From sequence record NC_025447.1: DNA of 64,000 bases; one strand, given 5' to 3'. The translations under genes and the position numbers were made by a program. This stretch comes from Escherichia phage 121Q. This document shows positions 1-64,000 of the stretch, piece after piece; the stretch's first letter is position 1, and the number at the start of each line of letters is the position of its first letter. The notes below the pieces were generated by a model. The model did not search any database. It was not told the origin of the DNA and saw only the letters and a list, made by a program, of their open reading frames with translations.

Positions 1-123
1 CATGAACATGAATCTTGTAAAAATCTAAAAGATTTTATCGCATACCGAGCATTTGAAAAGAACTTCTGCCGCAGTAGATATTCGAAGTTTGAGTACCCGT
101 TAATTGATGTTCCTGATGATTTA

Positions 124-744
124 ATGTTCCAGTTAATGCTGACCGGAGTTCAAGATTATGATTACATAGCGTATAATCATATTACTAAGAAAATTTATAT
201 TGGTACATCATCACATGACACTTCTATGTATGCATCATGCCCAGATGATCGAATGAATGATAGAAAATCATACTATAGTGGGTCAGTTGGTTTAAATGAT
301 TCATTAAATAAAAATTCATTCTTTGAGTATGTTTATGATTACCATCATGAGAAAAAAGAACGTGAAGATTACTGTATAGCAATTGATAGTACTAATGGTT
401 ATGAAGACGTGAAAGAAGCACTTATGCCGTACATTATTGAAAAGTACTACAAAGATTTTCAGTACTGTAGTAATTTTCTAATCAGAAATTCTATTATAAT
501 CGGTCGCCAATCTAGTGCATACTCTCAGTACTATAATGATTCACCAGTAGCATCGGCAAATGAAATGTGTGATATTTTACAAATTCCACGTGAAGATATG
601 GCATTCATTTTTACATCTTTTATTGAAGATGATGAGTTGTATATTAAAAATAAACACCGTTTCATGCCAAGCAAGATTGAGGTTATTCGAAGTTTTAGTG
701 TTGATATACTAACAAATTTCACAGAAAAAACCGAATATAACTGA
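124..744 (+). CDS. hypothetical protein; frame is open back to position 1, so the gene may start upstream of the window
   Basis: 206-codon ORF in track; no stop in this frame between 1 and 124; followed by hairpin and T-run. Confidence 0.5.
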   Translation: MFQLMLTGVQDYDYIAYNHITKKIYIGTSSHDTSMYASCPDDRMNDRKSYYSGSVGLNDSLNKNSFFEYVYDYHHEKKEREDYCIAIDSTNGYEDVKEALMPYIIEKYYKDFQYCSNFLIRNSIIIGRQSSAYSQYYNDSPVASANEMCDILQIPREDMAFIFTSFIEDDELYIKNKHRFMPSKIEVIRSFSVDILTNFTEKTEYN

Positions 745-770
745 GACAAATGATAAGTTAATGATATAAT
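742..770 (+). promoter_or_regulatory. sigma70-like promoter (TGAGAC, 17 nt spacer, TATAAT) upstream of repeat copy A
   Basis: hexamers read directly from sequence; -35 is weak. Confidence 0.35.
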
Positions 771-774
771 ATAA

Positions 775-807
775 GGTGACAACATAATATGTTAGTCACC
801 TTTTTTT
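775..807 (+). terminator. rho-independent terminator
   Basis: GGTGAC...GTCACC stem followed by seven T. Confidence 0.6.
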
Positions 808-855
808 AATCCTGAAAGGTTCCCATAAGGAAATGATTAAAAGCCTAATCCACTC

Positions 856-1310
856 GAAAATGTAGAGGGTAGATGAGTAGTCCTTTCAGTACGAACAGCA
901 GATGAAACCCGTTAGATGATGGCATAGTTTGAACCACTCACGGCAATGCGGCTGTATAAAGAACTCCAATAGGATAAAGAGAGTTCCTCGATAGACATAT
1001 AAGGATCGCACCTTACCAATTATCTAAGGGAGATTTCATAAGAAATATGCGGTCGGAATTATACAATATAGTTGCGTCCAAATTTTGTGAAATCAAATAC
1101 AAGTACTGGTCATATGGTATTTGTATTATGTGTCGGGATGTTTAAGACCGACGACCGTTGCTACAAGAACCGCGATAGAGAGAAACAGAGCAACCCGCTT
1201 TCGTCTCGTAAGAGAATTCGTGATATGAACTATGTGAAGGCCACCAGCGTCAAATTTTTTTGTTCTTTCCCCTGCGGGGGGATGAAATATGCTCAAGCAA
1301 ACCCCGTCAA
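856..1310 (+). ncRNA. candidate large structured noncoding RNA, copy A of a two-copy element; family unassigned
   Basis: long blocks near-identical to 55524-56041 separated by divergent spacers; blocks fall in different frames in the two copies; lies in one of the two largest intergenic gaps; strand assumed from upstream promoter. Confidence 0.5.
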
Positions 1311-1347
1311 TATTAATTAAAAGAAAATAGTACTTGTAGAATTAGAC

Positions 1348-1968
1348 ATGCGTAGCATGATAATTCTACTGATGTTGATGCAATCAACGTCACGTATATT
1401 CATTGATGTTTCCATAGGAATAATGATGGCATTTATTAGAAAAGAAAAAACTGTTACTTATAAAACTTTGAATTTTGATGATTGCATTAATCAATCACAA
1501 GACGAAGATATCTTTACTGGATATGTGGTTATTAAAGAAAAAGGATGCATTTCTTATATAAAGGAATTACAAAATGGAATTGAAGTGACTTCAGTTAAAT
1601 TACTTCCTACTCAAAAACCAACAATATCAAAAGCCCAGTATGGTAATTATTTTGAAGAAAGATATAGTAATAATTCAATAAGTGTTAAGGCTCATATTAT
1701 TAAAGGAGAACTAGAAGGAGAATATAGAAAATACAACCCACAAGGAAAATGTGTTTGGGTTAAATACTTCAATTCAGGATATGATGTAACATCTGAAATT
1801 ATAGAGTTCTTGGGTTTAAAATGTACCCCTGAGACTATTCATGATTACAAGTTCAATACTGAAGAAGAGTTTAATCTGATGATGCGTTACGGTTCACATT
1901 TTAAATTTTTATATGAATATAACATTGACAGTAGTACTTTTGATAAGATAGTACACAACTGTCTCTAA
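1348..1968 (+). CDS. hypothetical protein; start uncertain (internal Met also possible)
   Basis: ORF in track, same strand as neighbours. Confidence 0.45.
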   Translation: MRSMIILLMLMQSTSRIFIDVSIGIMMAFIRKEKTVTYKTLNFDDCINQSQDEDIFTGYVVIKEKGCISYIKELQNGIEVTSVKLLPTQKPTISKAQYGNYFEERYSNNSISVKAHIIKGELEGEYRKYNPQGKCVWVKYFNSGYDVTSEIIEFLGLKCTPETIHDYKFNTEEEFNLMMRYGSHFKFLYEYNIDSSTFDKIVHNCL

Positions 1969-1984
1969 CAAAAGGAATTATATA

Positions 1985-62022: not shown

Positions 62023-62190
62023 TGTGGTTTTTACAGTAAATATGTCTTGTAATAAAATAAAAATATGCTATACTACTTAAACATTTGAAAAGAACGTTTT
62101 TGTACTGTAGAAAGTCCGATGAGGCTTTTGCAAATGGCCTCTTTGCCATCTTTGTGATTGCCCATCTTAACAATCAACAAAGGAGGCGTT

Positions 62191-63117
62191 TTGAAACAAG
62201 CGAAAAAAGCACTGAAAACTAAGACTACTTATGGTGTTCTAGTTTGCACAGTACTTGTCGCTGCGATTGGATTTTATGGTTTTTCTCAAAATGATCGTGT
62301 ATCATCATCGGACGAAAGTCAGGTACACAATTTAAAACCACAAGTTACGCAAATTCAAAAGCAGGAATTACCAAAGGTAGAAATATCAAAGGATGTTCCA
62401 CGCGGCGAGAAGCATTATACGGTTCAACCTGGTGATAGTTATTATTCTATTGCTAAAAAGTTTAAACCTAAAAATGTACAACTTGAAGAGTATGTTATTT
62501 TGTTGAAAAATATCAATTTAAATGCTACTCTTCATACTTCTCAGGGTATCTTTATCCCAACAAAAGAGGATTTGAAGAACGTATTGTTACCAGATGTGAC
62601 TGTACTGTTTGATTATAATGATCCAGAAATTGTCAATCACATCAAAGAAGCTGAAGGTTCAATTGAATTTCAGTCCAAGAACAAACGCCGTTTACTTGGT
62701 GGGAAAGTCGGAGTTCCTTTCCACAATTCTAAATTTCATCCCTACAAGGACATGAAAGGTAATTATACAATAGGTTATGGGCATTATTTGGGTAGAAAAG
62801 AATCTGATGCGATTAAGTACAGAAACGGTATTACCAAAGCTCAAGCCAACAAACTTTTAATGCAAGATATGAAAAGAACATATGATGACTTTTTATTATT
62901 GATGCAGAAAAAAGAAGCAGTAAATCTGACCAAAGAACAACAACGTATTCTTTATGAAATGTCCTATACAATGGGTGTTGATAAATTAGCAACGTTTAAT
63001 AAACTTTGGAAAAGTGTGAAAAATGATAACCCTAAGAAATTTAAAAAAGAAATTATGAATTCCTTATGGTATCGTCAAGTTACAAACCGAGCAGATTTGT
63101 TGTTAAGTTCACTCTAA
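62191..63117 (+). CDS. endolysin: N-terminal membrane anchor, LysM-like segment, T4-lysozyme-family (GH24) catalytic domain; TTG start
   Basis: RBS AAAGGAGG 5 nt upstream of TTG; hydrophobic segment; LysM-like YTVQPGDSYYSIAKKF; YTIGYGHYLG resembles the T4 lysozyme core. Confidence 0.6.
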   Translation: MKQAKKALKTKTTYGVLVCTVLVAAIGFYGFSQNDRVSSSDESQVHNLKPQVTQIQKQELPKVEISKDVPRGEKHYTVQPGDSYYSIAKKFKPKNVQLEEYVILLKNINLNATLHTSQGIFIPTKEDLKNVLLPDVTVLFDYNDPEIVNHIKEAEGSIEFQSKNKRRLLGGKVGVPFHNSKFHPYKDMKGNYTIGYGHYLGRKESDAIKYRNGITKAQANKLLMQDMKRTYDDFLLLMQKKEAVNLTKEQQRILYEMSYTMGVDKLATFNKLWKSVKNDNPKKFKKEIMNSLWYRQVTNRADLLLSSL

Positions 63118-63133
63118 AAAAGGTAGGTAAATT

Positions 63134-63466
63134 ATGCTAAAATTAAATATTCAAGGTAATGTTGATTTTACTACAGCAATTCAAGATGCAATTTACGATG
63201 GTGCTAAATGTCTTGAAAAGTTCCGTACTTCAACTGTAATGGATATTGAAGTTCATGTGAAGAAAGAGCATAAGTCTCAATACTCTGTGACTCTAACATC
63301 AGGTAGTAAATCAGTTACTGCCGATGCAGCAGATTTATACAAAGCAATTGGTGATTCATTTGAAAAAATGGAAACTGTATTCAGTAAAGACAAAAGCATT
63401 AAATTACACCGCCGAAACCATCCAGAACACCCAGTTCTTGATGATTTGACAGAAAACGAAGAGTAA
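63134..63466 (+). CDS. ribosome hibernation factor homologue (HPF/RaiA family)
   Basis: colinear resemblance to E. coli HPF recalled from memory (LNI.GN.V..T.A, KLE, DLY.AI). Confidence 0.55.
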   Translation: MLKLNIQGNVDFTTAIQDAIYDGAKCLEKFRTSTVMDIEVHVKKEHKSQYSVTLTSGSKSVTADAADLYKAIGDSFEKMETVFSKDKSIKLHRRNHPEHPVLDDLTENEE

Positions 63467-63477
63467 TATATACTAAA

Positions 63478-63506
63478 GGGACAGATTAATTCTGTCCCTT
63501 TTCTTA
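63478..63506 (+). terminator. rho-independent terminator
   Basis: GGGACAG...CTGTCCC stem plus T-run. Confidence 0.65.
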
Positions 63507-63519
63507 TGGAGTTTTAATT

Positions 63520-63915
63520 ATGAATTATTCCTGGATGGAAATTGTAAAATCTATAATATCAACACATGATATGGACTTACCTGAACACCTAGTTATTAAT
63601 AGATGGTACTATCCATATCCAGATAACCGTTGTGTTGGGATTGGATTTTTTATTAATGAAAAATCTCAATATATTGGATTAATTGAAGATTATACAAAAA
63701 CCAACATTGCGTTCTCTATTGAGTTGAATGTAGATCACATAAAATACTACACTAATAAAATGGACGAAGACGATGGTGATGTTATAATTCCAGCAGAAAT
63801 AGACGAAGCTTCATTTTTTCAGTTATCATTAATTCATGATGTATCTGATATTACTTATGATAATGTGAAAGACCTTTTTATATTGTACAATAAACTGTAT
63901 AATTACTTTTTATAA
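63520..63915 (+). CDS. hypothetical protein
   Basis: RBS GGAG. Confidence 0.45.
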   Translation: MNYSWMEIVKSIISTHDMDLPEHLVINRWYYPYPDNRCVGIGFFINEKSQYIGLIEDYTKTNIAFSIELNVDHIKYYTNKMDEDDGDVIIPAEIDEASFFQLSLIHDVSDITYDNVKDLFILYNKLYNYFL

Positions 63916-63928
63916 TGGAGATAAATTT

Positions 63929-64000
63929 ATGGAATATACAATATGTATAGTTATATGTATCATATCCTTACTAGTCGGGGTTGGTGTGATGATTTATTGT
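63929..64000 (+). CDS. membrane protein, 3-prime truncated by window end
   Basis: ATG with RBS GGAG; hydrophobic N-terminus. Confidence 0.35.
   Translation, partial: MEYTICIVICIISLLVGVGVMIYC

Follow-up and report, generated by a model that had tools for sequence, protein, structure and literature searches.

AGTACT, a densely iterated palindrome of Rak2-like jumbo phages, is a candidate recognition site for a phage-encoded factor

A 64,000-bp stretch of the genome of Escherichia phage 121Q (NC_025447.1; here called the window) was analyzed for the hexamer palindrome AGTACT, which an initial annotation made from the letters alone had described as strongly over-represented throughout. AGTACT was found to be the top-ranking hexamer in the window and in every sampled relative of approximately 350 kb and 30 to 37% GC, to be kept at the same density while individual sites turn over, and, in two genera, to occupy fixed positions at the early promoters of the terminal repeat. 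Tentatively, and at somewhat less than even confidence, we interpret AGTACT as a double-stranded DNA recognition site that is kept by selection for a putative symmetric (dimeric) factor encoded by the Rak2-like clade. The enrichment of AGTACT in these ~350-kb jumbo phages appears to be unreported in the literature searched, in which no published account of it was found, the papers on RaK2, CBB, and Sharanji included. By megablast, the window belongs to the Asteriusvirus group of Escherichia coli jumbo myophages, with 96 to 97% identity to vB_EcoM_G17 (G17), Sharanji, PBECO4, and phAPEC6, and it corresponds approximately to the reverse complement of ~248 to 312 kb of G17.

The exact number of AGTACT copies in the window was 177, compared to 21.5 expected from base composition (an 8.2-fold enrichment) and 30 expected under a second-order Markov model. 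Among all 4,096 hexamers, AGTACT was the most over-represented (z = 26.6), while the 63 remaining hexamer palindromes were depleted, with an observed/expected ratio (O/E) of 0.67. The claim of strong over-representation was therefore borne out and is stronger than it was first put, with the initial figure of ~10-fold reduced to 8.2-fold. The sites that had been counted by hand were also compared to the computed ones. The first 3.1 kb contains 14 sites rather than 13, the one at 388 having been missed, and most of the positions given were right, those listed as 517, 2037, 3045, and 3066 actually lying at 527, 2027, 3044, and 3065; the ~8 sites reported for 40 to 43.2 kb were confirmed as 8, and the ~11 reported for 30 to 33 kb came to 10.

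We then compared the observed number to three nulls that preserve codons, of the kind proposed in the initial annotation as a check. When synonymous codons were permuted within genes, 50.5 ± 5.4 copies were expected (z = 23); resampling from pooled codon usage gave 41.3, and shuffling of codon order gave 31.7 ± 4.5. The sites fell in frame 0, where they read Ser-Thr (77 sites), in frame 1 (35 sites), and in frame 2 (53 sites), with 10 more in intergenic DNA, and 79 of the 124 Ser-Thr dipeptides in the window were spelled AGTACT, compared to approximately 14% expected. Since the hexamer occurs in all frames and dominates the spelling of Ser-Thr, it cannot be reduced to one over-used codon pair, and the frame counts together with the three nulls led us to reject any codon-pair or peptide explanation. 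These results demonstrate that AGTACT is, as first proposed, a signal at the level of DNA and not a peptide motif. Noncoding DNA was also enriched in AGTACT, both in the window and in G17. The one-mismatch neighbors of AGTACT were neither depleted nor enriched in the window.

The information in the signal was limited to the six core bases and one flanking position on each side. The 177 sites, dispersed over positions 1 to 64000 without strand, share the core motif H-AGTACT-D, and this lineage favors C-AGTACT-G: C was found at −1 in 79 sites and G at +1 in 81 sites, each a 2.7-fold enrichment. The combined form CAGTACTG occurred in 36 copies, compared to 0.6 to 5 expected, and this is exactly the number predicted from the two flanks taken singly (79 × 81/177 = 36). 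The flanks are thus independent, and an extended palindrome around the core was rejected. In all 11 of the 11 lineages tested, G at −1 and C at +1 were disfavored (4 to 14%), and the preference for C and G itself varied between lineages. The signal therefore has a two-fold symmetry, consisting of a palindromic core with symmetric flank preferences. Sites were separated by 351 bp on average, with a largest gap of 1,470 bp (P = 0.04), and were spaced more evenly than in a Poisson process (coefficient of variation, 0.80; P = 0.001); no helical or nucleosome-like periodicity of the sites was found beyond a 20-bp promoter pair.

To follow individual sites over time, codon alignments of orthologs were used, and the percentage of AGTACT sites kept was compared to the percentage of all hexamers kept. 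AGTACT was retained at 96 versus 85% in G17, 58 versus 40% in Ecwhy_1, and 51 versus 19.5% in Turkey5, and, in farther relatives, at 42 versus 17% in A4 and 26 versus 9% in 7t3, while in Eneladusvirus and Mimasvirus the two values were approximately 10 versus 8%. At approximately 58% nucleotide identity, AGTACT sites had turned over fully with their density unchanged; gains balanced losses, and the same density was measured in all genomes compared. Lost sites were replaced by the synonymous neighbors AGTTCT, AGTACA, and AATACT, and no deamination or conversion signature was detected at them. A conversion signature of the very-short-patch (VSP) type was rejected, given that the one-mismatch neighbors are not depleted and that the counterparts of lost sites are synonymous neighbors. 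Throughout G17, AGTACT spelled 50 to 67% of the Ser-Thr dipeptides of each region, and the conserved core of replication and structural genes was no exception. Taken together, retention and turnover at constant density point to selection acting on the DNA.

The distribution of the trait was determined by counting AGTACT in related phages and in host DNA, as the initial annotation had suggested. The whole G17 genome was put together from eight stretches (a 370.8-kb record, of which 350 kb is non-redundant). The full record contained 1,034 copies compared to 125.5 expected, again an 8.2-fold enrichment that placed AGTACT first among hexamers (z = 53), and the non-redundant 350 kb contained 902, or one per 388 bp. 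The relatives sampled were Ecwhy_1, Turkey5, A4, Salmonella phage 7t3, Erwinia phage pEa_SNUABM_47, Pectobacterium phage CBB, Yersinia phage fHe-Yen9-04, Klebsiella phage RaK2, Xanthomonas phage XaC1, and twelve IMG/VR contigs of uncultured ~350-kb phages. In every one of these of ~350 kb and 30 to 37% GC, across seven host genera including Xanthomonas, AGTACT was the top hexamer at 6 to 10 times its expectation; the groups with this property are Asteriusvirus, 7t3, RaK2, Eneladusvirus, Mimasvirus, XaC1 (75 copies compared to 7.2 expected), and the uncultured contigs. No alternate enriched palindrome was found in the relatives, and the identity of the hexamer was constant across the sampled clade. 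AGTACT was not enriched in the more distant jumbo phages PA5oct (1 copy versus 8.4 expected), XacN1 (0 versus 6.3), and Ea35-70 (6 versus 5.7) or in contigs of 47 to 59% GC. A 50-kb sample of E. coli K-12 contained 3 copies compared to 11.6 expected, making AGTACT approximately 40 times denser in the phage than in this host sample. The enrichment is independent of host taxon and, being present in a member that infects Xanthomonas, requires no enterobacterial host factor. In PA5oct and XacN1, AGTACT is depleted along with several other hexamer palindromes, since palindromes in general are avoided in these two phages (overall O/E of 0.54 in XacN1). Approximately 30 G+C-rich hexamer palindromes have no copies in the 64-kb window.

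The density of AGTACT was not the same everywhere in these genomes. The direct terminal repeat of G17 is 20,668 bp long (1 to 20,668, identical to 350,150 to 370,817), and within it AGTACT was twice as dense, at approximately one per 156 bp overall and one per 80 bp in the noncoding part. The terminal repeat of CBB (355,924 to 378,379) showed the same doubling. The G17 repeat contains 31 sigma70-like promoters (TTGACA/TTGCAA-N17-TATAAT). At 18 of the 31, an AGTACT started at −39, abutting the −35 hexamer, and at 13 of the 31 one was found at −19, abutting the −10 hexamer; at least one AGTACT at a fixed position was present in 27 of the 31. CBB, which belongs to a different genus, has 19 promoters in its terminal repeat, with AGTACT at −39 to −41 in 12, at −19 in 13, and at both in 11, so that 14 of the 19 carried one or both. 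The −39 and −19 sites lie approximately two helical turns apart, and their placement agrees between the two genera. One promoter within the window, TTGACT-N17-TATTAT at 26358..26386 on the plus strand, upstream of a gene that starts at 26420, has AGTACT at 26374 to 26379, which is −19 to −14, matching the terminal-repeat early promoters. No fixed position of AGTACT was found at late TATAAATA promoters or outside the terminal repeat. The ~31 and 19 terminal-repeat promoters of G17 and CBB each precede a small gene, often with a terminator after it, forming a pre-early module similar to the ones in T5 and SPO1. The late-promoter sequence TATAAATA has only 15 copies outside the G17 repeat, and no hexamers are more under-represented than TAAATA/TATTTA (z = −12.5), in the whole G17 genome and in the window, which fits an avoidance of stray T4-type late promoters.

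A second departure from uniformity was found in a 7.7-kb region of G17 (334,742 to 342,464), located outside the window, approximately 22 kb beyond its start. This region contained no AGTACT. It held 41 copies of TGTACT on the plus strand and no AGTACA there, the coding strand reading (T)(C)AGTACA(G/A). The AGTACA sites of this island occurred in all three frames (14/14/11) and in unique contexts, kept the usual preference for C at −1 and G at +1, and accounted for 15 of its 20 Ser-Thr dipeptides, none of which was spelled AGTACT (0/20); the borders of the island were sharp. It was also present in the independently sequenced genomes of ECO103 4-12-1 (97% identity), TH47 (86%), and Ecwhy_1 (82%), the last with a run of 43; the probability of no T following 43 copies of AGTAC was 6e-8. 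An assembly artifact was rejected, the island being present in four independently sequenced genomes at 82 to 100% identity. When G17 and TH47 were compared, 38 island AGTACA sites were common to both and 19 and 25, respectively, were private, all of uniform polarity, which indicates that the AGTACA variant is itself under continuing selection. Outside the island, AGTACA on the coding strand was enriched only 1.0- to 2-fold, an excess explained by synonymous decay. No known function was found for the island proteins. In CBB, the 28 kb that precede the terminal repeat were searched, and no such island was seen there. A separate 5.2-kb block of G17 (344,903 to 350,150), which abuts the right terminal repeat and consists of an array of small paralogous genes with repeated ACAAACTATCA, was without the motif.

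A signal that is symmetric, selected, evenly spaced, independent of host, and concentrated in the terminal region that is expressed first, where its positions are operator-like, favors a dimeric DNA-binding factor encoded by the phage, and among the functions listed in the initial annotation it is the binding site for a protein that gains most, owing to the fixed −39 and −19 positions in two genera; strand-aware mechanisms gain some support from the AGTACA island. We propose that, in the ~20-kb terminal repeat, where strong sigma70-type early promoters carry AGTACT just upstream of −35 (−39) and/or −10 (−19), a factor bound at these positions would occlude or remodel RNA polymerase binding and in this way time early transcription. 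Through the rest of the genome, with one AGTACT per ~390 bp, the motif would act as a "self" tag by which the same factor could coat, organize, or protect phage DNA without base substitution. Several points weigh against this interpretation. A regulator has no obvious need of the ~900 sites that lie inside genes. Since the promoters of a terminal repeat are paralogs of one another, counts from a single genome are not independent, and for the promoter positions it is only the agreement between genera that argues for constraint. No binder of the helix-turn-helix (HTH), ribbon-helix-helix (RHH), or HU type that is shared by the terminal repeats or early regions of G17 and CBB was found, and the ParE-like, DksA/TraR zinc finger, and kinase-like proteins of the terminal repeat and an HTH regulator of CBB yielded no shared candidate. 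Finally, a plain symmetric homodimer does not explain the island, where, in every frame and with unaltered outer flanks, AGTACA on a single strand (41:0) has fully taken the place of AGTACT. This suggests that some step is strand aware and keeps alive models based on a nickase, a primase, a Chi-like sensor, or methylation state.

Another reading, possible but less probable than the binding factor in its general form, is a private sequence code in which AGTACT marks unmodified DNA as "self" and a clade-specific reader also gates the early promoters. AGTACA would then be a second, strand-specific dialect of Asteriusvirus, limited to the 7.7-kb island and used by a reader or partner enzyme that acts on individual strands.

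A doubtful alternative dispenses with symmetry altogether and holds that an asymmetric 5'-AGTACW or 5'-WGTACT is read on one strand by a nickase, a T4-type primase, or a Chi-like helicase-nuclease sensor, the palindrome being the cheapest way of putting the signal on both strands; the primase version would be akin to T7 primase, a reader of pentamers. Such reading would account for the island, with its 41 to 43 AGTACA sites on the coding strand, none on the opposite strand, no AGTACT, and private gains, in three lineages of 82 to 97% identity. It is also consistent with the even spacing of AGTACT and with the replication and repair genes of the phage, which encode a gp61/gp41-type primase-helicase, a RecD-like helicase, a Cas4-like nuclease, SbcCD, and a ligase, and a Chi-like role in telling self from host fits the ~40-fold contrast in density with the host DNA sample. 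Conversely, the island sites keep their symmetric outer flanks (C at −1 and G at +1), which a footprint over both halves would predict; neither priming, nicking, nor Chi offers an obvious reason for the fixed −39 and −19 positions; and no island was found in the 28 kb before the CBB repeat. To our knowledge, neither primase nor Chi sites are enriched 8-fold in other phages. The orientation of the motif is skewed only in the 7.7-kb island (41:0), the main motif being a palindrome and so without Chi-like polarity, and Chi itself (GCTGGTGG) was found in the window in only 2 copies, with 3 on the other strand. An HNH endonuclease of 218 aa is encoded in the window (53974..54630, plus strand) and had been named initially as a possible AGTACT enzyme. 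It proved a poor candidate: only Asteriusvirus and 7t3-type phages keep the gene at this position, Yersinia phage fHe-Yen9-04 having only a weak match (34%), and it was rejected as a clade-wide factor since it is not clade-wide at that locus.

Rather more doubtful is a private epigenetic mark, in which an orphan methyltransferase of the phage would target AGTACT and the full, hemimethylated, or unmethylated state would be read in the manner of GATC and Dam, timing early promoters, distinguishing old from new DNA, or gating packaging, with the dense sites as its substrate. Dam-regulated promoters have sites that overlap their −35 and −10 regions, and the AGTACT sites of the early promoters recall these. 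The island variant drops the position-1 adenine from one strand and would consequently be methylatable on a single strand. All members of the clade encode DNA methyltransferases, three of them in CBB (PMC5259590), and the only enzymes that cut RaK2 DNA are insensitive to methylation (PMC3622015). The candidate writer in the window is a Dam-family N6-adenine DNA methyltransferase (PF05869; 173 aa; 1985..2506, plus strand), which, together with a neighboring cytidylyltransferase gene, is conserved and syntenic across the AGTACT-rich clade, XaC1 included; a related-locus search with this protein returned 121Q only. Its homologs in lactococcal phages of the 936 group are approximately 43% identical to it, and the characterized 936-type enzyme M.Phi93DAM methylates GATC (PMC4190342). 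Judged from this relationship, the window enzyme is probably GATC specific as well, and although it is present clade-wide we rejected it as the AGTACT writer, the role for which it had first been put forward. The depletion of GATC, which is approximately 2-fold in the window and in G17, counts in favor of an epigenetic mark; TGATCA is also strongly depleted in both (z = −10), despite the encoded Dam-family enzyme.

The other methyltransferases did not supply a writer either. An N4-cytosine methyltransferase found in Mimasvirus and Eneladusvirus is missing from Asteriusvirus, G17 included, and was rejected as the common factor. This gene, at ~16.3 to 17.2 kb of the stretches from those two genera, is 85 to 92% identical between them, while the orthologs there that are shared with the window average only approximately 45 to 48% identity, which suggests either recent spread or very strong constraint. 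The C5 methyltransferase of G17 is annotated as HaeIII-like, and the cytosine methylation of RaK2 is at CpG (PMC3622015). No endonuclease and methyltransferase pair of the ScaI/Eco255I type was recognized in the annotations or in the Pfam scans run, which did not cover the proteome exhaustively. No AGTACT-specific methyltransferase is evident, lost sites have changed at synonymous positions and show no sign of deamination, and protection from restriction would not favor more sites.

Three further explanations are disfavored. The first is that AGTACT has no function and is continually made by mutational bias or by biased repair or gene conversion of the VSP type, as for HIP1, the highly iterated palindrome of cyanobacteria, which Elhai in 2015 reportedly explained by such a process. 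A conversion bias could also produce a constant density during turnover. We nevertheless consider this very improbable, because the one-mismatch neighbors are neither depleted nor enriched beyond codon effects, the spacing is more even than random, the density doubles in the terminal repeat, the promoter positions are conserved across genera, and the island holds 41 near-cognate sites that have not been converted. The second, which we rate equally low, is a signal in RNA, with AGUACU in transcripts, whichever strand is transcribed, serving as the target of, or a shield against, an RNase or RNA-binding protein. Independence of frame, the AGUACA that follows the coding strand into mRNA in the island, and the many RNA repair and processing genes of the phage would agree with this. 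An RNA motif, however, needs neither a palindrome nor symmetric flanks, many sites lie at −39 and −19 in promoter DNA that is not transcribed, and AGTACA on the coding strand is at 1.0 to 2 times its expectation outside the island, as synonymous decay explains. The third and least credible is that the phage carries hundreds of copies of the center of the E. coli SlmA-binding sequence (GTGAGTACTCAC), activating SlmA and blocking division: the core of that sequence is indeed AGTACT (PMC3020112), cells infected with Sharanji filament (PMC11895373), and some −19 sites of CBB promoters read GTGAGTACT, but SlmA requires G1, T2, A4, and G5 while the phage flanks prefer C and disfavor G at −1, the full binding sequence (GT-R-AG-Y/R-CT-Y-AC) is found 0 times in the window and 0 times in G17, with 2 and 20 half matches, respectively, GAGTACTC has 0 copies in the window, and a Xanthomonas phage shares the enrichment, for which reasons the idea was rejected.

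Several local features of the window involve the motif or accompany it. At 23858..23877 on the plus strand, a 20-bp perfect palindrome, GGAATCCAGTACTGGATTCC, is followed by a T-run and forms an intrinsic terminator with AGTACT at the center of its hairpin; the initial annotation had placed a terminator with an AGTACT loop at 23858, where it is indeed present, and it matches an annotated terminator of G17 (stretch L001, 35871 to 35893). Four pairs of AGTACT were exactly 18 bp apart (443/461, 32592/32610, 34597/34615, and 59870/59888), compared to approximately 0.5 expected, with no spacer sequence in common, and the third of these (34597..34620, plus strand) lies in the 35-bp gap between two genes (CAGTACTGCCATCGTGTGCAGTACTT). 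A LexA SOS box (CTGT-N8-ACAG with an AT-rich spacer) was rejected for such pairs, there being no match to it and the spacers being unrelated. The window is approximately 94% coding, with nearly all genes on the plus strand, and encodes RNA and DNA ligases, polynucleotide kinase, NrdD/G, a PhoH-PIN protein, and tail proteins in addition to the Dam-family methyltransferase and the HNH endonuclease. An RNA repair set, located at 9797 to 12968 and 48061 to 49293, comprises an RnlA-type RNA ligase, a PseT polynucleotide kinase-phosphatase, and an RlaP-family nucleotidyltransferase; the PIN-PhoH fusion lies at 30165 to 31604, and the protein encoded at 56589 to 57029 is ferritin/Dps-like (DUF5856), its annotation in Ecwhy_1 being that of a starvation-inducible DNA-binding protein. 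A tRNA cluster in G17 (77,934 to 82,176) includes a tRNA-Ser with anticodon ACT, which reads AGT, and a tRNA-Thr(TGT), and AGT is the commonest Ser codon, in part owing to the AGTACT motif.

Jumbo phages that do not form a nucleus and that use ordinary bases have no known means of discriminating their own DNA from that of the host in takeover, replication, and packaging. With a density ~40 times that of the host sample and persistence in a clade in which protein identity has fallen to 30 to 45%, AGTACT is a concrete candidate for such a self mark and, if it is one, would represent a novel means of viral self-recognition that requires neither base modification nor a nucleus-like compartment. 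The binding-site interpretation also suggests a regulatory logic for the early genes in the terminal repeat of an almost uncharacterized phage group that is being considered for therapy. In practical terms, the clade can be recognized in metagenomes simply by its AGTACT density, and digestion with ScaI is expected to yield pieces of ~0.4 kb unless the site is modified. These phages may furthermore offer a second and experimentally easier system for the long-unsolved question of highly iterated palindromes such as HIP1.

HIP1 (GCGATCGC) is the closest known phenomenon to the AGTACT of these phages. In both, a short palindrome is many-fold over-represented, occurs approximately once per few hundred bp and inside genes in all frames, and is kept while sites turn over. 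HIP1 is a feature of host genomes that is tied to cognate orphan methyltransferases (CGATCG/GATC), and some lineages have alternate palindromes. AGTACT differs in being carried by a phage clade in which the hexamer is always the same, in lacking an evident cognate methyltransferase, and in having fixed promoter positions and a strand-specific variant island. No biased pattern of one-nucleotide deviations of the kind expected from conversion was seen, the deviations from AGTACT following synonymous positions. The proposed factor itself may be likened to TF1 of SPO1 and p6 of phi29, abundant phage-encoded proteins that prefer phage DNA, bind along the genome, and repress strong early promoters in or near the terminal regions. 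TF1 discriminates by hydroxymethyluracil and p6 by DNA shape, whereas the AGTACT factor would use an exact, over-represented hexamer, and no homolog or binder was found here. The GATC sites of Dam have a similar density in E. coli, with 240 in a 50-kb sample (approximately one per 208 bp) compared to one AGTACT per 156 to 388 bp, and their methylation state regulates promoters and marks strands, with SeqA and MutH as readers; unlike AGTACT in the phage, GATC is not above expectation in E. coli, and it is depleted in the phage. Chi and the KOPS motifs are likewise over-represented "self" oligomers, recognized by a translocating enzyme, and the AGTACA island resembles them in its strict strand polarity, but Chi and KOPS are asymmetric and skewed genome-wide while the main form of AGTACT is palindromic and without polarity. 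Finally, ScaI and Eco255I recognize the identical AGTACT; phages normally avoid restriction targets, yet AGTACT is present here at 8 times its expectation.

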